Assembly (NCBI GenBank): GCA_965207075.1
Contig: CBDBLO010000002.1
Location: 704,001-768,000 of the forward strand
Origin: Nitrosopumilus sp.
GTDB lineage: Archaea > Thermoproteota > Nitrososphaeria > Nitrososphaerales > Nitrosopumilaceae
Length of the DNA stretch: 64,000 nt
Direction: 5' to 3'
Shown: piece by piece, positions 2,946-32,009 of the stretch
Layout of the letters: every line of letters begins with the position of its first letter
Numbering within the stretch: position 1 is the stretch's first letter
The notes under the pieces: model-generated
What the model was told of the DNA's origin: nothing
Seen by the model: only the letters and a program-made list of their open reading frames with translations
Databases searched by the model: none
Translations under genes and position numbers: made by a program

Positions 2946-4334
2946 TCATGCGGAAGGATTCGCTACCCTTCCCATGAACATTATGGTGCCGCTCTCGTCG
3001 TCGATTATGAAGAACAGGAACGGGCGGTCCGCCTTGAACGTTACCGGTCCGCTATCCGCCATTCCTATGACTGTCACTGCAGCGGCCTCCGTTCCCTCCT
3101 CGTTTACATTCACGTACGCGTCCTGGGTGGCCCTGTCTACAAACATGGTGGTATCCGATATCCCGCTCAGGTCCCCCCTCCCGTCAAAAATGAGCGTGAT
3201 GCCGAGATCCTCCAACTTGGGTATGAGATCATAGTGCGTCTTGACCTCGAACTTTGGGACGGACACCATGACGCTCTCATACTGCATGTTCTGGCGCCAC
3301 CCCTCCACCGTCTCTGCAGAGAGCGACCCCTCCAGGGACGCCATTCCGCCGTGTCCGGACGGCAGCGCGACCAGCATAGAGAGCCTGTCGCCGACGTAGG
3401 GCATGCGGAGGATCTGCATGCCGTCGTATTCGGCATAGTCAAAGCCGGCATCCACGTGCATGGTGTCCGCCTGGACGGTCCCGTTTCCGGTGTCAAAGTC
3501 GCGCGGCCGCGTATCCTCGGGGTCGAACGGCACCTCCCACGCGCCCTTGAAGTATATGGCGTTGAGTATCATGGCGAGGGTGTCGCCATCCACGTCTTCG
3601 GGTTTCAGCACCTCGGGGATCTTTTCGCGCGTCTTCTCGGACGCCCACCCGTTTATGCGGTCCAGCGCGCCGCCTTCGCCATAGTCGGTAAAGTCGACTG
3701 TCTCTATGTCCGCTTGGTACGTCTCCCTCACGATCTCCACGTATCTGGTATGTGGCACGAGCCGCTCTGCAAGCCACAGTGAGTTTGCCGTCTCAAGGGT
3801 GGCGTGCGGGTCGTCGCGGTTCAGTGACGACATGGTGTCTGAGACTGCCTGGTGCCTTGCGGCGTCGTTATCTGCCATCCCGAAGACGTTGCGGATCTGC
3901 TCGGCAGTCTCGCCCCGCGCCCCCTCGTACAGCACGGAGAATGCAGTGTGCATGCTGGCAGGCGAGAAGAAGTGGTTACCCTCCTCGCCTGCGATCTGTC
4001 TGTAAAAGTCAAAGGCAAAGGCGTTGTTGGCAGAGGCGACCTCTGCGGGGATCGGCCTTGGTTCCGCAGGCTCTGTTTCATGATGAGATGAAACCTCCGT
4101 CACGTGGTCGACCTGCTCGAATCCCCTGTCGGTCAGCGCCTCTACTGATCCGGCAAACACGCATGCAGGCGATCCTGATGGGGATGCCATCAGAATCCTG
4201 TCGCTGGCGCACACCACTTGGTCTGCCGGAATGCCCTCCTTGAGTTGCTGATATGGGGACGGAATCTCTGCGTGCGCGATCCCGGCGCCGGTTACCATAA
4301 CGGCTAGCGCAAGCAGCGGGACAGCTAAATTCAT
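2946..4334 (-). CDS. Secreted serpin (serine protease inhibitor)
   Basis: Signal peptide; NHFFSPAS, LNAIYFKGAW, hinge EEGTEAAAVT, FKADRPFLFFI, IMFMGRV; N-terminal thaumarchaeal-type SPYQQLKEGI...C...PACV domain. Confidence 0.95.
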   Translation of the reverse strand: MNLAVPLLALAVMVTGAGIAHAEIPSPYQQLKEGIPADQVVCASDRILMASPSGSPACVFAGSVEALTDRGFEQVDHVTEVSSHHETEPAEPRPIPAEVASANNAFAFDFYRQIAGEEGNHFFSPASMHTAFSVLYEGARGETAEQIRNVFGMADNDAARHQAVSDTMSSLNRDDPHATLETANSLWLAERLVPHTRYVEIVRETYQADIETVDFTDYGEGGALDRINGWASEKTREKIPEVLKPEDVDGDTLAMILNAIYFKGAWEVPFDPEDTRPRDFDTGNGTVQADTMHVDAGFDYAEYDGMQILRMPYVGDRLSMLVALPSGHGGMASLEGSLSAETVEGWRQNMQYESVMVSVPKFEVKTHYDLIPKLEDLGITLIFDGRGDLSGISDTTMFVDRATQDAYVNVNEEGTEAAAVTVIGMADSGPVTFKADRPFLFFIIDDESGTIMFMGRVANPSA

Positions 4335-8067: not shown

Positions 8068-8574
8068 CCTGCCGCTGCGGGGTTTTCGGGTTTTGCGGGG
8101 CGCAGTATGGCCTCGTCTGCCCTGCTTTGCAGCTGGGACGGAATTTTTCTGTAGCTGGTGACATAGGCCGGTCCGCTCTGTGTGCCACATGTCATTAGGG
8201 CCTGTAAAGATCTTCTGTCAGTGATCGGGGGGTTCAAATGACTTGGACGTGTCCTTTCCAGACCCATGCTGCTCTATTGCATACCCTTCGTTTGGCTACA
8301 GGCTGTCGACTGGTGCCTGCTCTGTCTCTGACATGCGTTACAGCATTTCAAATTGTTTCTAAAACTATCTCCGGCGAGTCAGTTCTGTGCATTTTCCCTT
8401 CTCTCCACCAATCCCGATCTGGACACAAATGGAGAATGTAGGCGGAATTGCAATCTCGGTACTGTTGCGAATACGTGACATAGGCACGGCGCGATCTTCT
8501 CCGAAACGACCTTGATCCGCTTCTGCTCCGGTGGGCTGACCACAATTTATAACGTTGGGTTCGGCGGCGTGATC

Positions 8575-9639
8575 GTGGATGACATCGCCGACATAGACGC
8601 GCTTCTCAGGCTCAACGTGGGGGACGCGGGAAGGCTCAACTACATGAAGTCCAAGCTTGAGGGCGGCGGCACGCTGTACAGTTCGGACAGGACGTACCTT
8701 GAACGCCTGAAGGACGGCCTTGCGGGCGCGCCCGCCGAAGCGCCCGCCGAAGCGCCCGCCGAAGCGCCCGCCGAAGCGCCCGCCGAAGCGCCCGCCGAAG
8801 CGCCCGCCGAAGCGCCCGCCGAAGCGCCCGCCGAAGCGCCCGCCGAAGCGCCCGCCGAAGCGCCCGCCGAAGCGCCCGCCGAAGCGCCCGCCGAAGCGCC
8901 CGCCGAAGCGCCCGCCGAAGCGCCCGCCGAAGCGCCCGCCGAAGCGCCCGCCGAAGCGCCCGCCGAAGCGCCCGCCGAAGCGCCCGCCGAAGCGCCCGCC
9001 GAAGCGCCCGCTGCCTCCAAGGAGCGGGAGGTCATAATCGTAAACAAGGCGCCGCAGTCGAGCGCGGCGTGGTATCTCTTGCCCGTATTCTTCCTGATCG
9101 TGGGCGGCCTCATATCGTACCTGTGCCTCCGAAAGCAGGACCCGCCGAGGGCGCGCAAGTCGCTGATAGTGGGGGTCGTCCTGACTGCAATACCACTCAT
9201 GTTGCTCGGTGCAATGTACGGGGCCGTGGAGGACGAAATCATAGGCGAGGACGTGCACGTGCCCAACCTGACCGACGAGCAGATCAAGCAGATGGCCGTC
9301 GCCATCCCGTACGATTCGCTCATGGAGGAGCCGAAAGAACACGCGGGCAAGATAATCAAGTACGGGGGGAACGTGTTCCAAGTACAGGACAGGTTAAACT
9401 CACACGTGATGCTCGTCTCCCCCGACTTGCCGTCAGGCAACATCTGGTCCAACTTTGAAGCGGACACCAGCGCCAAGAAGCAGCTACTTGATGAACTCAA
9501 ACGAGACGTACCCAGCGCTGACGTGAGTGTGTGGGGCAAGTTCACGGGGCTACGGGATTATGACACGTGGCTTGGGGGCACAAACACCGTGCCCGAAGTG
9601 GATGTTTACATTTTGGAGAAGATCGTCATTCTAGACTAG
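8575..9639 (+). CDS. Membrane protein with (APAE)n linker and C-terminal OB-fold-like domain
   Basis: TTTATAA box at about 8546; N-term GDAGRLNY...LYSSDRTYL domain; two TM helices; GKIIKYGGNVFQV...VSVWG...VPEV. Confidence 0.7.
   Translation: MDDIADIDALLRLNVGDAGRLNYMKSKLEGGGTLYSSDRTYLERLKDGLAGAPAEAPAEAPAEAPAEAPAEAPAEAPAEAPAEAPAEAPAEAPAEAPAEAPAEAPAEAPAEAPAEAPAEAPAEAPAEAPAEAPAEAPAEAPAEAPAASKEREVIIVNKAPQSSAAWYLLPVFFLIVGGLISYLCLRKQDPPRARKSLIVGVVLTAIPLMLLGAMYGAVEDEIIGEDVHVPNLTDEQIKQMAVAIPYDSLMEEPKEHAGKIIKYGGNVFQVQDRLNSHVMLVSPDLPSGNIWSNFEADTSAKKQLLDELKRDVPSADVSVWGKFTGLRDYDTWLGGTNTVPEVDVYILEKIVILD
8728..9011 (+). repeat. Coding 12-bp VNTR (GCGCCCGCCGAA) x23 plus partial unit
   Basis: Perfect tandem copies visible in sequence. 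Confidence 0.95.
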
Positions 9640-10388
9640 GGCTTACGTGGAATTTGAGCACACAAGAAAAGTACTGTACTTTGGTTTTTTGACGACTGTA
9701 AGAGATCAAATATTTGGCATTATCGTACCGCATACGGTAACTCCTGCCGTACACTACCGTTAAGCGCGCATTTAAATTACGGTACGTCCAATACATGCTA
9801 CCGTCTTCGCGTTAGGTCAAGGTATGATGCGGAACATTGGTGCAAACACGGTTCCGCCGCGAATCAGTGATGTGCGGGGGGACGTATTCATCATTGCATC
9901 TTTACTCTGTTCAACCGATTGTAACCCTCCGACAAAGTTATATCTAACTCCTCTCCAAGGACTTAGAGAGGTGCAGGTAGCACCTAGCAACCTGATTGGG
10001 AAGTCAGGAATAGTAAATTTTTGAGGGTATTATTCAGATGGTTGCAAAAATCGCCGCTCTATATAGAGGTGAAAATATGTCCATTATATGTAAGACTGTT
10101 GCGTGTATTAGACGACTATTCGGCAAATGAGTAGAGGCCCATTTTGGGTGCTGTTTCCGGTACTGGTATGAATTCGGTATATAGTCATCGGTTCGGCACC
10201 CTCTGGTTCGTGGCTATCAGGTAGAGGCTGGCATATCATCCCGCCCCCTACCGCGACCCCGCGATGATTCATCTCCAAGTTTCTCAGGAAGTGTCAGATG
10301 ATGTCTAGCCGTGCCTAGATTCTATATCACGAATTCGCAACAGTACCGCAATCTCGAGGGCTTAAAAGGAAACCGTCGTCCTGACTGC

Positions 10389-11642
10389 ATGCCGAGGTGG
10401 CGCATCTCAAACAGAAAGGCGCCCAGGGGGCAGCTGGCAGACGTCAGAAAGATCATATGCGGCCCCGAGAGGCCGTCCGCCCGCTCGGTGATTGTGCCGA
10501 TAGAGTCGGACCTGAAGGGGGCGTCAAGCGTCGCCGGTGGATTGGCAGGGGAACAGGTACGGAGCTTTGAGATGTGGTGGGACGCGGCAGAGTCCAAGCT
10601 CCGGTTTGTCATCATATCAGACGAGAGGGACGCGGACGACTTTGAGCGGGCGTTCCAAGTCATGTATCCGAATGCGGCGTTCGATGACATGCGCGAGACG
10701 GTCCCCGCGTGGTTTGAGCGCGGGTCCGCGTGCCGCGTGTTTGACGTGGGGACGCGCCACGGCCACTATGCGGCGGTCTTTGACGAGCCGGGCGGCGGCG
10801 GAGGTGGGGAGCACAGCCTCATCACCCGGATGGCGAGCGCCGTCCAGTCGGCCAGCCACGCGTGGATCCAGTTCGTGTTTGCGCGGCTTGACTGCACGGC
10901 GTTTCTCCGCACGCACATGTCGCGCCTGGACAGCCGGTTCATGGAGATAAACCGCGGCAACTACACGTCGCTGGGGGACGAGATTACGGGGAAAAAGCCG
11001 CGCGAACACCCGGAGCTCGGGTACGACCTTACAAGCAACTACAAGGGCCTCAAAAAGCACGTTATAGCAAAGATGCAGGGCGCGCACTTGGTAATGAGCA
11101 TAAGGGGGCTGGTACAGGGCGACGGCGAACAAGACGTCGACCTCCCGTTTGACAATGTCTCGGCGCTGTCGGTGGACGGCATCGATTCCACATACGAGCA
11201 CCTGGCAAAGTTCCGCTACGGATATGACAGGTTCTGCTCCGATGCAAAAAAGTCGCAGATCAGGGTGCCCGGGCCGCGCGGCGCGCGCGACCACAGGGTG
11301 TGCATGTTCGAGTCAAGGCATCTGCCGGATCCCGACCAGTTCTTTGGCCGCGCCATATCGCAGTATTTTGACAAGGGGTGGTGGGGACTCCGCGGGTACC
11401 AGACCAGGAGGCCCCTGCCGTTTTTGATCCTGAACCCGGCGGAAATACCGCTGTTCGTGCACCTGCCCGACCCGGCCACGCCCAACGTGGAGACCACGCG
11501 CGGAGTGCGCCTCCCCTCAAAGCCGTCTGAAAAGACGGGTGCGGGCATAGGCTTTTTCGACTCGCTGGACGATCCCGGCCCGCAGCCCGGCCCTGCACCC
11601 GGAGACGCGGGGCGGGAACCTGCGGATGATGGTGGCGCTTGA
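10389..11642 (+). CDS. Conjugation-associated protein preceding VirD4
   Basis: SFEMWW...FERAFQVMYPNA...WIQFVF...LILNPAEIPLFVHLP pattern seen in N-terminal regions/partners of coupling proteins; overlaps next gene. Confidence 0.65.
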   Translation: MPRWRISNRKAPRGQLADVRKIICGPERPSARSVIVPIESDLKGASSVAGGLAGEQVRSFEMWWDAAESKLRFVIISDERDADDFERAFQVMYPNAAFDDMRETVPAWFERGSACRVFDVGTRHGHYAAVFDEPGGGGGGEHSLITRMASAVQSASHAWIQFVFARLDCTAFLRTHMSRLDSRFMEINRGNYTSLGDEITGKKPREHPELGYDLTSNYKGLKKHVIAKMQGAHLVMSIRGLVQGDGEQDVDLPFDNVSALSVDGIDSTYEHLAKFRYGYDRFCSDAKKSQIRVPGPRGARDHRVCMFESRHLPDPDQFFGRAISQYFDKGWWGLRGYQTRRPLPFLILNPAEIPLFVHLPDPATPNVETTRGVRLPSKPSEKTGAGIGFFDSLDDPGPQPGPAPGDAGREPADDGGA

Positions 11643-13606
11643 CTGCAGTCCGGACGGGGGACAGGAGGCGCCAGTGGGGCGAGATGGCCAAGTCCAAGGA
11701 CGCGGGCGCCGCGGTCATATCCCCCACCGACTTTGCAAACCACCTATACGTGGTGGGCGCGTCCGGCTCCGGCAAGACCTCGCTGATCCGCCTGCTTGCA
11801 AAGCACTTGGAGGCGTGGAACCTCAACGGCACATTCCAGAACGCGTTCATCTATGTGGACCCAAAGGGGGACGATTCCCATAAGTTTGTCAGGCAGTGCA
11901 GCCCCGACACGGTCGGGCGCGGTTCAGTGCACTTTCTGGACCCCCAAAAGACAAAGTTCTCGATCAACCCTCTGGAGCTACCCGCATACCAGGAGAACGA
12001 GCGCGAGGAATTAGTGTCCAGGTACGTCGGCTATTTCATGAAGACCATAGAGGAATGGTACCAGCAGTCGGCCACGTTCGTGCAGATGGAGCGCATATTC
12101 CGCGCCCTGCTGTTCTACGTGTACATGAAGCACGACTCCCCTACCTTCCTTGACATACACGACATGATACTAAAGATGCAGGAGAGCGGGCACGATGCCC
12201 TGCCGCAGATAGCAAGCACGTTCGGGACCCCGAACCGGGAGATGGAGCAGGCTTTGCTGAGCATAGCGGCGCTCAAGGGCGACGCGTTCGTCCCGCTGCT
12301 GAACCGCATCGAGCAGTTCGCGACCGACCCCGTGCTCAAGAGGATGTTTTCAGTCAGGAAGGGCACCGTGAACTTTGGGGAGCTGATCAAGCCCGGCACG
12401 TATACAGTGGTGCGCATATCGCCCCTGAACATGCCCCACCACGTGCAGCCGCTGGCGATGCAGGCGTTCATACTAAAGCTGTGGTTTGCCATCCAGGAGC
12501 GCGCAAACCTCCTGCTGGGTGAGGAGAGGACGCAGGTGGTGCTGGCGCTCGACGAGTTCCAGATTGTAAAGGACCTGCAGGTGCTCCAGCTCATGCTCGA
12601 GCAGGCCAGGTCGCTGGGGCTGGGGCTGATACTGTCGCACCAGACCACCGAGCAGATAAGCGACACGCAGCTCGGATTGATCACGGGGAACTCGGGGACG
12701 CAGCTAGTGGGCAAGGTAAACGGCAAGGACGCCACCAGGATGGCACAGATCTGGGATCCGCAGTTCAAGGGGGAGCTGACCCGGCTGCTTGCAAGCCAGG
12801 AATACTTTCACTGGTCCATACGGGAAAAGGCGCCTCCCGGAAAGGAGCAGCCGCTGCCCGTCCAGTTCTGGCTGGGCGCGCCGCCCGCCCTGCAGGTGTC
12901 AGCCGCCGCGTACGACGCGTTTCTGGCGGCCCAGCTTGCAAAGTACGGCCGCGGCACGGTGGAGGATACGATGGTCAGGCAGACGATCGCGGCCCGCAAC
13001 AAGTGGCTTGAGAGCATAACGGTACGGTTCCCGGCGCGCATGGAGTGGAGGATAATGGTCATGCTGCTCAGGAGGCCCCTCCAGCAGATGGAGATGGTCT
13101 CGGAGCTGCCGGTCTCAAACAGGTCCGAGGTGCTCGACATCCTCAAAAAGATGCAGGCAGACAGGCTTGTCAGAAAGACCGATCCCGGGAACCGCCTCTC
13201 AAAGTACGACCTGACGCAGGACGCCAGATCCGCGTACTTTGAGCCCAGGTTCGACGAGGTCGGCTCCGCAGCCGAGATCGAGGGCCTGACGCGGCGCGTG
13301 TTCAACGGCTATCTGAAGAAAGGGATGTTCGTCGCCGTGGCCTCGCAAAAGGTGACAAAGGGGCGCGACAGGACCGACCTGGTGGCGTACGACTACGAGG
13401 ATGACACCCCCATAAGCGTGGAGATCGAGTCGGTGGTCGAGGTGCAGAGCCACCCGGAGCACGTGCGGTACAACATGGTAAAGTGGAGGGAGATGGGGTT
13501 CGGGCAGTGTCACGTGTGGTCCAAGAGCCCCAAACTGCAGCAGATCTACGACCGGCTTTCGGACGGGGAAAAACGCGACGTCCAGATCAGGGTCATTTCA
13601 GCCTGA
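11639..13606 (+). CDS. virD4: VirD4/TraG-like coupling ATPase with C-terminal wHTH and PD-(D/E)xK domain
   Basis: HLYVVGASGSGKT, VDPKGD, SINPLE, LALDEFQ, QARSLGLGLILSHQ; C-term RTDLVAYD...ISVEIES. Confidence 0.85.
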   Translation: MTAVRTGDRRRQWGEMAKSKDAGAAVISPTDFANHLYVVGASGSGKTSLIRLLAKHLEAWNLNGTFQNAFIYVDPKGDDSHKFVRQCSPDTVGRGSVHFLDPQKTKFSINPLELPAYQENEREELVSRYVGYFMKTIEEWYQQSATFVQMERIFRALLFYVYMKHDSPTFLDIHDMILKMQESGHDALPQIASTFGTPNREMEQALLSIAALKGDAFVPLLNRIEQFATDPVLKRMFSVRKGTVNFGELIKPGTYTVVRISPLNMPHHVQPLAMQAFILKLWFAIQERANLLLGEERTQVVLALDEFQIVKDLQVLQLMLEQARSLGLGLILSHQTTEQISDTQLGLITGNSGTQLVGKVNGKDATRMAQIWDPQFKGELTRLLASQEYFHWSIREKAPPGKEQPLPVQFWLGAPPALQVSAAAYDAFLAAQLAKYGRGTVEDTMVRQTIAARNKWLESITVRFPARMEWRIMVMLLRRPLQQMEMVSELPVSNRSEVLDILKKMQADRLVRKTDPGNRLSKYDLTQDARSAYFEPRFDEVGSAAEIEGLTRRVFNGYLKKGMFVAVASQKVTKGRDRTDLVAYDYEDDTPISVEIESVVEVQSHPEHVRYNMVKWREMGFGQCHVWSKSPKLQQIYDRLSDGEKRDVQIRVISA

Positions 13607-13904
13607 GGCGTTCCAGCTTGCTCCTCCCGGGCGCCGCGCCTCCGCGCCCCTTGGACTTTTCGGACCTGCCCTTGGCGATCATCTCCGTTACGGCCGTCTC
13701 GTACTCGTCCGAGCCTGTGGGGCCCGGGGCGCCGCCGCCCGCGACGGCGCCAGTGGGCGTGATTATGATCTCCCCGTTTCGGAATGTAAGCCTGACACCC
13801 TGTCCCCTGTGAAGCTTTGCCCTCTTTACCATGGCCCGCGGGATCGTCAGGAGGAACGATCCGTGACTCTGCTGTAACCTGCGCTCGAACACCTGCTCCT
13901 CCAT
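13593..13904 (-). CDS. AbrB/MazE/SpoVT family DNA-binding protein
   Basis: RRLQQSHGSFLLTIPRAMVKRAKLHRGQGVRLTFRNGEIIITP. Confidence 0.85.
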   Translation of the reverse strand: MEEQVFERRLQQSHGSFLLTIPRAMVKRAKLHRGQGVRLTFRNGEIIITPTGAVAGGGAPGPTGSDEYETAVTEMIAKGRSEKSKGRGGAAPGRSKLERLRLK

Positions 13905-13932
13905 AACATCGTGTACGCCATATTCATTTAAG

Positions 13933-14087
13933 GCGTGGAAAGCGTGGAAAGCACGTTTTTGCCACGCGTGGAAAGCGTGGAAAGCACGTTTTTGCCACGC
14001 GTGGAAAGCGTGGAAAGCACGTTTTTGCCACGCGTGGAAAGCGTGGAAAGCACGTTTTTGCCACGCGTGGAAAGCGTGGAAAGCACG
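13933..14087. repeat. 33-bp tandem repeat, 4.7 copies (iteron/centromere-like)
   Basis: GCGTGGAAAGCGTGGAAAGCACGTTTTTGCCAC, no spacers, internal 9-bp duplication. Confidence 0.95.
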
Positions 14088-14613
14088 CCCCTGTTTTGCG
14101 GGTACGTGTAGAATATCCCACTCGCATATTGGCCTGTCACCTCAACGACAACCGCCGCCCCGTCTCGGATGTCCGCCCCCCTCGTCGGTTCCCTCCGAGG
14201 GGGGCTCTATTGTCTCCCTCCGCCGCAGGCGCCCCATATCCAACTGATAATTTCGCAGGCAGCGCACAACCCTCAATCTTTCGAGACGCGCGGTTGCCGT
14301 CCAGCGCCCCCGCGCGCCAACTGTTTGCAGGCAGGTCAGAACACATACCCCGCCAACCCATTTCGCGCCCGCGGCGCGCCACCGGTATGTCGCGCCGTCA
14401 TTTCACGTCATCCCGAAGCGGCCCAGATGTCACATTTTGGCCGGTTTCCAGTTGGCTCAAACTCGTCCGGCAACCACAGACCGCAGCACAGGCACTCTCG
14501 CTGTCCATGATTATTGATTCGCAGTCAAGTCTGTCGCGTTCTCACAAGGTGTTTCTGGCACATCCGGCGGCCTGTCCGGACTCCACCCGGAACCCGGCAT
14601 TTGCCCATCTTGT

Positions 14614-14697
14614 GGGCTTGGTCGGCTCCGCCGACTTGGGGGGCTCCAGGCACGGGCTTGGTCGGCTCCGCCGACTTGGGGGGCTCCAGGCACGGGC
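14614..14697. repeat. 40-bp direct repeat x2 with hairpin
   Basis: GGGCTTGGTCGGCTCCGCCGACTTGGGGGGCTCCAGGCAC; GTCGGC-TCC-GCCGAC stem-loop. Confidence 0.9.
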
Positions 14698-14705
14698 ATC
14701 TTCAT

Positions 14706-14878
<173 letters not shown>

Positions 14879-14912
14879 AATCTACCAAGGTCGGCTTTTC
14901 CACGGTTGAGTC

Positions 14913-15410: not shown

Positions 15411-15797
15411 TCAGATCGCCCTGGAGGGGGGCGGCGCAATCTTGCTGGCAGCCAGGACCTCCCTGACATCGGGGATCTCCCACGCGTACTGTATGTGGAC
15501 GCACATGTGTTCGTCGCAGTACTCGCACCACGCCCTCGTGTCGCGGAAATACACGGACAGGATCCTGCCCGCGCGCCCAAGCCTGTTGTCAAGTATCTTT
15601 ACGTGGTCGTCGTACATGTTGATGTGCTCAAACCTCTTCTTCTCCAGTTTCTCGAGCTTTTCGCGCAGCGCCAAATCCACGAACTGGGACATGTTGGTTA
15701 TCCCTTCCCCCCTTACCGCATCAGTCTGCAGCATCTTCTCGACCTCGTCCATCATCACTTTTTTCACGTTGACCGTCTTCCAGTCCCCCTTTCCCAT
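15411..15797 (-). CDS. Ribbon-helix-helix regulator with C-terminal SWIM-like Zn site
   Basis: WKTVNV...ITNMSQFVDLALREKLE; WCEYCDEHMCVH. Confidence 0.75.
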   Translation of the reverse strand: MGKGDWKTVNVKKVMMDEVEKMLQTDAVRGEGITNMSQFVDLALREKLEKLEKKRFEHINMYDDHVKILDNRLGRAGRILSVYFRDTRAWCEYCDEHMCVHIQYAWEIPDVREVLAASKIAPPPSRAI

Positions 15798-16003: not shown

Positions 16004-16159
16004 ATGAAGAAATGGGGGACGGTCCAGGTCAGGGCGACGGTTCTTGAGAGGATCGCCTGCCATCTGAACGACAGGACGGAACCCTCGATAACGAACACGG
16101 CGCAGTTTGTGGATATGGCGCTGCGCGAGAAACTGGAGGCGCACGGAGGGGGAGTCTGA
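16004..16159 (+). CDS. Small RHH protein (51 aa), paralogue of the divergent regulator
   Basis: Manual translation MKKWGTVQVRATVLERIACHLNDRTEPSITNTAQFVDMALREKLEAHGGGV; below ORF-track cutoff. Confidence 0.75.
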   Translation: MKKWGTVQVRATVLERIACHLNDRTEPSITNTAQFVDMALREKLEAHGGGV

Positions 16160-20596: not shown

Positions 20597-21430
20597 TCAT
20601 TTATTCGTCATCTCCCACAGTTCGACAAACTCTGCCGGTGTCATGTACCCGATAGAGGAGTGTATCCGCTCTTTGTTGTAGTCGGCAATGGCTTCTGCAA
20701 TGATCTTCTCTGCCTCCTGGTAATTGGCAAACTCATGCGGCCAGATGTACTCCTTTTTGAGGGTCTTGTGGAACGACTCGACGTGCCCGTTCTGCTCCGG
20801 TGTGTTCTTCCAGATGAACTCGTGCTTGCCGATGCCCAGGGCCCGGACCGCGCGCCTGAAGTCTCGGCTCGCGTACTGGTTGCCGTTGTCAGTGCGCAGC
20901 CGCAGCCTGGAGCAGTCGGGCCTTTCCGCGGCGACCGCGTTTGTGATCGAGTCGATTGCCACGTCCCTCGTGGCATGGACGTCAAACGCGTACGCGATCC
21001 ACTTGCGCGTAAAGCAGTCTATCACGTTGAAACAGTAGCACCAGCCGTCAATGCCGCACCAGACGTACGTGATGTCAGTCTCCCACAGCCGGTTCGGGGC
21101 CTCTGGCTTGAAGAGCCTGCGGCCTGCCCGGATGATGTCGTTTTTCGTCTTTTGCGGCTGGATGTAGCCTATCCTGCGGTATATCCGCTGCACTTTCTTG
21201 CGGTTTGTGGACACGCCGGTCTCGCGGGCCACCTGGGCCGCCATTCTTCTGGTTCCATACGTGGGACGCCTGGCCGCAATGCGCCTGACCACCCGGACGG
21301 CGTCCGCGTCCACCGGGACGTTCCTTGGACGCGCAGTGTAATACCATGCCTGCTTGGACATGCCGCAGTATCCCAGCGCCCTGTTGAGGCTCATGTATTT
21401 CGCTGCCTTGGTGACTGCCTCCATCCTCAT
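20597..21430 (-). CDS. IS3 transposase OrfB (DDE/rve)
   Basis: YGTRRM, WETDITY, TDNGNQY, EQNGHVESFHKTLKKE, YNKERIHSS. Confidence 0.95.
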   Translation of the reverse strand: MRMEAVTKAAKYMSLNRALGYCGMSKQAWYYTARPRNVPVDADAVRVVRRIAARRPTYGTRRMAAQVARETGVSTNRKKVQRIYRRIGYIQPQKTKNDIIRAGRRLFKPEAPNRLWETDITYVWCGIDGWCYCFNVIDCFTRKWIAYAFDVHATRDVAIDSITNAVAAERPDCSRLRLRTDNGNQYASRDFRRAVRALGIGKHEFIWKNTPEQNGHVESFHKTLKKEYIWPHEFANYQEAEKIIAEAIADYNKERIHSSIGYMTPAEFVELWEMTNK

Positions 21431-21708
21431 CTTTTTGCCCCCTCCAAAGTTTTTTTTAAAACGTCGTTGGCTATGGTGATCTCTGCGATTATGCGCTTGA
21501 GGTGTTCAATCTCCCGGACGTGGCTCTTGTCAACGTCCCCGTGGCTGGCAAGCGCCTGCTTGCCACCCTGCAGGAACTTGTCCTTCCAGTCCTGGAAGGT
21601 CGCAGGGGAGACATTGTGCTTGCGGCACAGCTCGGCGGCAGATATGCGGGTGGTAAAAAACTCCACCACCGCGTCGGCCTTGTCTTGCGGGCTGCGTCTC
21701 TTGCTCAT
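21427..21708 (-). CDS. IS3 transposase OrfA (HTH)
   Basis: AELCRKHNVSPATFQDWKDKF, C-terminal coiled coil, VLKK. Confidence 0.9.
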   Translation of the reverse strand: MSKRRSPQDKADAVVEFFTTRISAAELCRKHNVSPATFQDWKDKFLQGGKQALASHGDVDKSHVREIEHLKRIIAEITIANDVLKKTLEGAKR

Positions 21709-21818
21709 GCCCCTGCTGCCGCCTCCTGCACCCTTAAGCATTCGGTTTTGATCGGTCTCACTTTAGCGGGGTCCAGCCCACTGCACGATACATCCGTGGA
21801 TAACAGGGAGGATTATAG

Positions 21819-30872: not shown

Positions 30873-32009
30873 GTGAAGACGACCTTGTTTCTGGGCGCGG
30901 GCGCGTCGGTGCTTGCAGGGATGCCGACAACAAAAGGCCTGATTGACGAGGTACGGGATCGCGTACTTAATCACGAAGCATGGGAGAGTCGGGAGGCGAA
31001 AGCTCTGGCCGAAAACATCATGACTGAGCATAGCAAGAAGGACGTCGAGAAATTATACGAGAGAATCCACCGCATGATTAGCGCCGAGAAACTGCATCGG
31101 GCCATAGCATCGTACAAGATAACGCATAACGCAAGCGGCCCGTCAAGACGTCGGATACAAACCACTGAATCACCATATGGTTCGGACAACATAACCGCAG
31201 TAGAGGAAACCACAGACATTGACGAAACCATAAGGGCCCTCGAATCACTGGAGACGGCCATACGCAACACGCTGCTGGCCAGCCTCATGGTCAAACAGGA
31301 GCGTTTTGATGCAGTAGTGTCCACATACAACAAATTGTTCACGTTCGTATCCCGCAACATAGTTACGACCAACTTTGACAACGTGCTGGAAGCCTACTGC
31401 GCACAGGCGGGACTGGATCTTGTGGACGGCTTCGAGAGATCACCGCTCGGCGACATGCGGACGTGGGGGGACGTGTGGGAGGATGCGGAGAACGCGCTAC
31501 ATTTGCTCAAACTGCACGGTAGCACAACGTGGCAGAAGGACGATGACGGAGCCGTGCTACAAATTGGCAGGCCGGGCCTGCGCAGCACGGACAGGGATGT
31601 CATGATAGCCCCCACGCTTGGCACGAAGGATTACAGCGACAGCATATTTCCCGCGTTGCTGGAGAGGTTCAAAAAAGTATTGGACGAAACCGAGACACTC
31701 ATAGTGGTGGGGTTCTCGTTCAGGGATCCCGAAATCACGCAGACGCTTCAGCGTCACCTCAGGCGCACCAACAAAAGCCGCGATCCCATGAATCTCTTGT
31801 GTGTGGATCCGAACCTAGATGGGGTGAAGACGTTGTTTAGTTCAAATGTCGAGACGAATTCGGTGTGGGGGCCGAGAAAGGATATGTTGTGGCATTTTGA
31901 TTCAGATAAAATGCCGTACGTGTATGCGTACCAAGTTGAGTTTGGCCTGGACATTATACAATCCTTGGAAAACGTATTGGAGATCGTAGATAGTGAATAC
32001 GAAGCATAG
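30873..32009 (+). CDS. SIR2-like (SIR2_2) protein, probable NADase defence effector
   Basis: LFLGAGAS..AGMPT, IVTTNFD, LKLHGS, VVGFSFRD. Confidence 0.9.
   Translation: MKTTLFLGAGASVLAGMPTTKGLIDEVRDRVLNHEAWESREAKALAENIMTEHSKKDVEKLYERIHRMISAEKLHRAIASYKITHNASGPSRRRIQTTESPYGSDNITAVEETTDIDETIRALESLETAIRNTLLASLMVKQERFDAVVSTYNKLFTFVSRNIVTTNFDNVLEAYCAQAGLDLVDGFERSPLGDMRTWGDVWEDAENALHLLKLHGSTTWQKDDDGAVLQIGRPGLRSTDRDVMIAPTLGTKDYSDSIFPALLERFKKVLDETETLIVVGFSFRDPEITQTLQRHLRRTNKSRDPMNLLCVDPNLDGVKTLFSSNVETNSVWGPRKDMLWHFDSDKMPYVYAYQVEFGLDIIQSLENVLEIVDSEYEA

Follow-up and report, generated by a model that had tools for sequence, protein, structure and literature searches.

This analysis concerns a 655-amino-acid (aa) TraG/VirD4-like ATPase with a winged-helix and nuclease-fold module at its C-terminus, encoded on a 64,000-nucleotide stretch of a Nitrosopumilus sp. 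genome (assembly GCA_965207075.1, contig CBDBLO010000002.1, positions 704,001 to 768,000 of the forward strand). The whole stretch is referred to as the window, and positions are those of the window unless a contig is named. The genome comprises 2.23 Mb on two contigs, the larger of which (C2) has 2.19 Mb, and is 95.4% complete. It is that of an ammonia-oxidising archaeon, and the sources of the close protein relatives label them Thaumarchaeota / Nitrosopumilus. The window also encodes VirB4/HerA-like, T2SSE/FlaI-like and T2SSF/TadC-like genes, with the VirB4-like ATPase located beside the VirD4-like gene. This is the gene set given by Krupovic et al. 2019 (PMC6563490) for thaumarchaeal integrative-conjugative elements (ICEs), and the element in the window is an ICE of this type. 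The ATPase and its upstream neighbor, both open reading frames (ORFs), consist of the following parts:

10311..11642, plus strand: upstream ORF of 443 aa, corresponding to the N-terminal ~400 residues of one-chain TraG/VirD4-like relatives (BLASTP)
11639..13606, plus strand: 655-aa ORF with ATPase, winged helix and nuclease-like domain (ORF translation, Pfam, NCBIfam, relatives)
11639..11642, plus strand: TTGA overlap of two codons, the TTG start (655-aa ORF) and the TGA stop (upstream ORF); the split point (sequence, frame translation)
11687..12928, plus strand: P-loop ATPase of the FtsK/HerA superfamily, TraG/VirD4 type, residues ~17-430 (Pfam, family profile against solved structures)
11756-11779, plus strand: Walker A motif GASGSGKT, residues 40-47 (sequence)
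13034..13219, plus strand: MarR/ArsR-like winged helix-turn-helix (HTH), residues 466-527, with recognition helix 495-507 and wing strands 511-513 and 523-525 (model)
13274..13594, plus strand: PD-(D/E)xK-fold (restriction-endonuclease-like) domain, residues 546-652 (model, fold searches)
13376-13378, 13421-13423 and 13427-13429, plus strand: putative metal-binding triad D580, E595 and E597, respectively (alignment, model)

The ATPase domain is matched by the Pfam families TrwB_AAD_bind (26.9 bits versus a cut-off of 20.5, residues 275-343) and AAA_22 (28.6 bits versus a cut-off of 27, residues 34-80), and TraG-D_C scores slightly under its cut-off. NCBIfam yields weak VirD4-like and TraD matches, with the VirD4-like models far under their cut-offs. 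Compared with solved structures, a profile of the family matches the FtsK/SpoIIIE-type chain of EssC/FtsK (4nh0_A, E 4.9e-8), HerA (8wiv_A, E 7.4e-8) and TrwB (1e9r_A, E 3e-7). Since TrwB, a FtsK/SpoIIIE-type chain and HerA are all matched, profile similarity assigns the domain to the FtsK/HerA superfamily; it is 'VirD4-like' by its best family model and not close to bacterial coupling proteins. The latter (TrwB of R388, VirD4, TraD, TraG) are likewise P-loop ATPases of the FtsK/HerA superfamily encoded in conjugative elements. They have, however, an N-terminal membrane anchor that the window protein lacks. The window protein combines a large soluble N-terminal domain with the C-terminal winged-helix/nuclease-fold module. 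No membrane segment is predicted in either chain: the highest Kyte-Doolittle mean is 1.13 for the upstream ORF and 1.17 for the 655-aa ORF, compared to the usual threshold of 1.6 (19-residue window).

The C-terminal module was modelled with AlphaFold. For residues 440-655 the model (53-sequence alignment) reaches a pLDDT of 96.1 and a pTM of 0.90, and residues 539-655 modelled alone reach a pLDDT of 94.8. The initial annotation, made from the sequence alone, had described a VirD4-type ATPase followed by a winged helix and a PD-(D/E)xK-fold domain, an order that is borne out by these confident models and by fold searches. Residues 546-652 consist of a helix, three strands, a helix and a further strand, that is, the alpha-beta-beta-beta-alpha-beta core. 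The fold search with the two-domain model was uninformative on the nuclease part, as winged-helix matches filled the list. With the domain-only model, the best Foldseek E-value is no lower than 1.5e-3 (NucS), although the matches are of a similar kind, and the nearest solved folds are AF1548 (1y88), PaqCI (8em1), NucS/EndoMS (2vld, 5gke) and Can2 (8bao), at a sequence identity of 9-12%. Further matches include Hjc, type II/IIS restriction enzymes and an RNA-polymerase subunit (8q3b_E). The assignment to the PD-(D/E)xK fold class is thus well supported by the model, and kinship with any single family of that class is not.

In the model, D580 (within RTDLVAY) is placed immediately before strand 2, and E595 and E597 (within ISVEIES) are placed in strand 3. 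As modelled, these acidic positions are the sites where the PD-(D/E)xK fold carries its metal ligands. AF1548, PaqCI, NucS/EndoMS and Can2 have in common with the window domain the core fold as well as acidic residues where strand 2 begins and within strand 3. The window domain differs from these solved nucleases by a glutamate in place of the strand-3 lysine, by its protein context and by the lack of a sequence-profile match. The motif, initially written as (D/E)xK, therefore has to be corrected to D...ExE: D580 and E595 are conserved, and the position of the canonical lysine is occupied by E597. Conserved K615, H605 and N612 are found in helices after strand 3.

Conservation of the acidic residues had been named at the outset as one of the points on which the proposal could fail. 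The triad D580/E595/E597 is intact in 45 of the 49 aligned relatives, and the remaining four have one substitution each, or two in one case. We also aligned 14 nuclease domains, namely five from the genome under study, eight encoded on Sulfolobales plasmids and that of Thermococcus pT33-3; the plasmid domains are 29-39% identical to that of the window. The triad is invariant throughout this alignment, within the set Q570, D580, A583, E595, I596, E597, S598, E601, H605, E607, N612, K615 and F621, and no tyrosine is invariant among the 14 domains. Q570, D580, E595, E597, S598, E601, H605, N612 and K615 thus form a polar constellation with hardly any variation over the three archaeal lineages (Nitrososphaeria, Sulfolobales and Thermococcus).

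Libraries of known families contain little that resembles the nuclease domain. Residues 540-655 are assigned to no family in Pfam (no match at E <= 1), NCBIfam or PHROGs, and the sole library match is PHROG 7035 (E 1.4e-5), which has 969 positions and no known function. Among solved structures, a single-sequence search with the tail returned a chance-level match only (SPT5, E 1.3), the full-family profile matched in its ATPase and MarR parts only, and a profile restricted to the nuclease domain gave nothing meaningful (best match a glyoxalase, E 0.066). When residues 440-655 are compared with 1.84 billion representative proteins, 98 matches are obtained, mostly at the C-terminus of proteins of 620-1260 aa; a few are proteins of ~200-230 aa, possibly fragments. 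The module is carried by 13 of the 401 sampled genomes of the phylum, a patchy distribution that resembles that of a mobile element.

The relatives with known context are conjugative plasmids. A tblastn search of 72,556 plasmids with the 655-aa protein matched 63 records. For pYN01, pARN3, pT33-3, pARN4, two S. tengchongensis plasmids and pNOB8 the match extends over 94-98% of the query (25-27% identity, E 1e-34 to 7e-45), and the haloarchaeal plasmid matches listed cover the ATPase part only. A hidden Markov model of the module, built from 49 domain sequences, matches TraG in 10 of the 10 archaeal conjugative plasmids examined (E 2.2e-28 to 9.4e-20). The TraG/VirD4-like proteins with the module are those of pNOB8 (1025 aa), pARN3, pHVE14, pSOG2, pKEF9, pING1, pTC, pMGB1, pAH1 and Thermococcus nautili pT33-3 (1370 aa). 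The plasmid TraG/arCOG04816 ATPases and the window protein have the same domain order and the same invariant C-terminal residues in addition to the full-length homology. By sequence, the window gene is a member of these TraG/VirD4-like ATPases of archaeal conjugative elements (pNOB8 ORF1025 type; arCOG04816).

Knowledge of conjugative Sulfolobales plasmids goes back to the 1990s; thaumarchaeal ICEs followed in 2019 and pT33-3 in 2023. The annotations consulted in the supplement of Krupovic 2019 and in the table of the pTC paper name these proteins as TraG/VirD4 ATPases only, without a nuclease domain, and in the literature searched we found no description of this winged-helix plus nuclease-fold module on archaeal TraG/VirD4. 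With the window, the family gains a naturally split thaumarchaeal member, from a genome whose five paralogues of the TraG/VirD4-like gene can be compared within one host.

The split requires a revision of the initial annotation, in which the coupling ATPase was placed at 11639..13606. This 655-aa ORF represents the back two-thirds of a ~1040-aa protein, and the rest is encoded by the ORF at 10311-11642, which is read in a different frame. According to BLASTP, the 655-aa ORF corresponds to residues 401-1042 of a 1042-aa relative (P0010) with 74% identity, and the upstream ORF, over its residues 29-423, matches residues 5-393 of P0010 with 53% identity. Most of the 120 relatives listed are 980-1090 aa long, i.e., single chains of ~1040 aa. 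Members of the archaeal TraG/VirD4-like family are typically one chain of ~1000 aa including the N-terminal domain. The window protein departs from this form: together with some relatives, it is divided into two ORFs at the linker preceding the ATPase. Among the 120 relatives, the split form (650-657 aa) is found at 90-92% (653 aa), 75-76% and 67-69% identity, and the VirD4-like gene of a sister element in the same genome is likewise split. Because relatives at 67-92% identity and the sister copy all have this split with intact frames, it reads as a working two-chain variant and not as decay; a pseudogene is unlikely on the same grounds. The split form indicates that the ATPase-nuclease part and the N-terminal domain can each function on a chain of their own. 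The upstream ORF has no family match in Pfam or NCBIfam. In the ESM Atlas its nearest neighbors are DUF8128 clusters of bacteria (score 0.93, 195 shared features), which provides a lead to the identity of the N-terminal domain.

We note that no recognizable relaxase accompanies the ATPase. The initial annotation had recognized no HUH relaxase in the window, and the absence of recognizable relaxases extends to the entire 2.23-Mb genome, where seven relaxase families of Pfam are without a match. In six-frame searches of the genome, Replic_Relax (PF13814) has no match at E <= 1, and the six models for HUH, Rep_trans and HD relaxases (MOBF, P, Q, V, T, H), namely Relaxase, TrwC, MobA_MobL, Mob_Pre, Rep_trans and TraI_2, have none at E <= 0.1; none of these families occurs among the 36 window ORFs scanned. 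According to Krupovic 2019 (PMC6563490), Beltran 2023, the pTC paper and a review of December 2025 (PMC12857230), no relaxase of archaeal conjugation is known.

The comparison with relaxases of the MOBC family that the initial annotation had suggested holds for the architecture. TraX of pAD1 is reported to combine a winged HTH at its N-terminus with an active site of the restriction-endonuclease type; no covalent intermediate is seen, and the protein binds five direct repeats that lie 70-120 bp away from the nick site (PMC12857230). MOBC proteins (TraX, pTEF1) and the window module share the order of parts, with the winged HTH ahead of the restriction-endonuclease-type domain, and the lack of a conserved catalytic tyrosine in the window family fits the reported absence of a covalent intermediate for TraX. 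In pTEF1, a pAD1-like plasmid, the replication-relaxation protein matches PF13814 (E 2e-6) and its gene is close to the coupling-protein gene. The relaxase gene of pTEF1 thus adjoins the coupling-protein gene, whereas in the window both functions would share one protein. MOBC proteins are moreover free-standing and ~260 aa long, while that of the window forms an ATPase tail with a D...ExE motif.

The likeness in architecture does not extend to kinship with Replic_Relax. PF13814 has no match at E <= 1 to the window protein, its nuclease domain or 16 relatives, and hhalign of the nuclease domain against the pTEF1 replication-relaxation protein gave probabilities of 3.1% and 0.9%, with limited power owing to the single-sequence template. 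Hence, the module may function like a MOBC relaxase, by analogy, and is by sequence comparison not a demonstrable member of MOBC/Replic_Relax. CloDF13 was also considered as a source for this comparison. Its MobC is absent from the annotation of the record, six ORFs >=150 aa have no Pfam match at E <= 0.01, and CloDF13 was dropped in favor of pTEF1.

The interpretation we prefer, and to which we assign somewhat less than an even chance, is that the C-terminal module of the TraG/VirD4-like ATPase acts as a transfer-initiating nuclease that stands in for a relaxase. The winged helix and the PD-(D/E)xK-fold domain are predicted to bind element DNA, and the nuclease domain would cut or nick this DNA hydrolytically and thereby start transfer. 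D580, E595 and E597 would act as metal ligands, and K615 or H605 of the following helices would replace the strand-3 lysine. The cut would be a site-specific single-strand nick and not a double-strand cut, and the ATPase would pump the DNA once cut. In the window element, the 443-aa and the 655-aa chains would need to assemble. A stricter form of this proposal, that the tail is the missing archaeal relaxase, namely a hydrolytic, non-covalent, site-specific nickase within a hexameric pump that would recognize, open and export the element, convergent with MOBC and of independent origin, appears rather doubtful to us. If the domain is active, coupling and DNA processing, which are carried out by separate proteins in bacteria, can share one machine.

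The nuclease could also be active without being equivalent to a relaxase. It might produce double-strand ends or process branched DNA for a dsDNA translocase in the style of FtsK/TraB, or it might process the excised circle. According to Krupovic et al. 2019 (PMC6563490), who take up an earlier suggestion, DNA may pass in double-stranded form during archaeal conjugation. The profile of the ATPase matches FtsK/EssC and HerA no worse than TrwB, and among the closest folds of the nuclease domain are NucS/EndoMS, Hjc and type II/IIS restriction enzymes, all of them cutters of both strands or of branched DNA. The missing membrane anchor points in the same direction; we nevertheless consider this explanation unlikely. 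The domain might, on the other hand, not cut at all. Inactive PD-(D/E)xK-fold domains are well known, and a catalytically dead domain could serve as a DNA-binding or docking module on the ATPase ring, with the cut made by a host enzyme or by an unrecognized protein of the element. The ExE in place of the strand-3 lysine, the incomplete triad in four of the 49 relatives and fold matches that are not nucleases, such as the RNA-polymerase subunit 8q3b_E, are consistent with a dead domain, as is the proposal by Beltran et al. 2023 that single strands are supplied by host HerA-NurA. However, the 13 invariant columns, most of them polar or charged, are maintained across lineages at ~30% identity, as is typical for an active site and not for a scaffold, and in the model the acidic residues are exactly at the metal-ligand positions of the fold. 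We regard a dead domain as distinctly unlikely.

The window protein might also be an ATPase-nuclease for defence (similar to Hachiman HamA, Upx or Can2-type effectors), carried as cargo, that degrades incoming foreign DNA and has no role in transfer. Such a function is very improbable. The homology to TraG of conjugative plasmids covers 94-98% of the length of the protein, the module is present in each of the 10 plasmid TraG proteins examined, and the position of the gene within the conjugation gene set is kept in three elements of the same genome. In addition, mutation of the VirB4- and VirD4-like genes of pT33-3 is described as abolishing conjugation (PMC12857230), i.e., the homologue of the window protein is reported to be required for transfer. 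A conserved nuclease-fold domain on an ATPase reported to be indispensable for transfer makes the opening of DNA in archaeal conjugation directly testable.

Downstream of the ATPase gene, the window contains a small gene and two sets of repeats:

13593..13904, minus strand: convergent ORF of 103 aa that separates the ATPase gene from the iterons and is weakly matched by AbrB/MazE-type (SpoVT-AbrB) models (Pfam, NCBIfam)
13933..14097, no strand assigned: iteron array of about five (4.7 copies) 33-nt direct repeats with GCGTGGAAA twice per repeat, ~330 bp 3' of the stop of the ATPase gene
14705..14879, no strand assigned: TTGTCGAC repeats, inverted relative to each other, on both sides of a perfect (GGCA)25 microsatellite (repeat analysis)

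The 103-aa ORF matches MazE_antitoxin in Pfam with E 0.0039 (17.6 bits versus a cut-off of 24.7) and an NCBIfam model with E 9e-4. A copy with 50% identity holds the same position beside the VirD4-like gene of the sister element. That element also has an array of 33-nt repeats (7.9 copies), located ~340 bp 3' of its VirD4-like gene (contig C2, ~1,777.6-1,777.8 kb) and unrelated in sequence to the array in the window. The position and divergence of the two arrays suggest element-specific iterons that may serve as origin, centromere, incompatibility determinant or transfer site. The initial annotation had proposed the repeat region at 13924-14900 as the substrate of the protein, for which we find no support: the 33-nt iterons of the two elements are quite different, and their recognition helices differ by one conservative residue only. 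The iterons, considered by analogy to the five direct repeats to which TraX binds, were therefore rejected as the likeliest binding site of the winged helix. Because the iterons diverge and the recognition helix does not, they are more likely read by the AbrB-like neighbor or by another diverging factor.

A 40-nt duplication is located between the iterons and the TTGTCGAC region. The sister element has the same TTGTCGAC structure, with (GGCA)11. On the 2.19-Mb contig, GGCA runs of at least six units are found at the window and sister loci only, and clusters of at least three TTGTCGAC words are found at these two loci as well as near 445.8 kb and 2017.5 kb. As the sole repeat structure common to both elements, TTGTCGAC/(GGCA)n is a candidate conserved cis site.

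The genome harbors at least two further elements with an identical order of conjugation genes. Paralogues or elements are found on contig C2 in the regions ~714-758, ~1721-1783, ~1147-1272 and ~1919-1951 kb, an unusually heavy load of related ICEs. Several other genes of the window merit mention. An ORF of 375 aa at 8512-9639 (plus strand) has a long perfect (AEAP)n tract (repeats at 8720-9037) and no other copy in the genome; within this repeat, ARAGORN predicts four false 'tRNAs' that overlap one another and have four-base anticodons. An ORF of 363 aa at 20660-21751 (plus strand), without a Pfam match, has three genome copies at 99.7-100% identity and is probably an insertion sequence (IS) or another recently mobile gene within the element. 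The small divergent ORFs at 15411-15797 (minus strand) and 16004-16159 (plus strand) have no significant Pfam match. Both encode a ...QFVD(L/M)ALREKLE... segment, which accounts for a 52-nt, 83%-complementary inverted repeat, and judged by this common segment they look like paralogous small DNA-binding proteins.

Two genes inside the element, a SIR2_2-domain gene (30873-32009, plus strand) and a DUF3800 gene (51976-52737, plus strand), are possible defence cargo, and the sister element contains no copy of the SIR2 gene. A full-length serpin gene (2946-4334, minus strand; Pfam Serpin, E 7.8e-111) adjoins a gene with a nucleotidyltransferase domain and is located at the edge of the element or just outside. 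Near the right end of the window, where the GC content drops to 36-49%, a gene with an rve-type integrase core (57047-58126, plus strand) and a DDE_3/HTH transposase gene (59989-60996, plus strand) may mark the border of the element or IS insertions.

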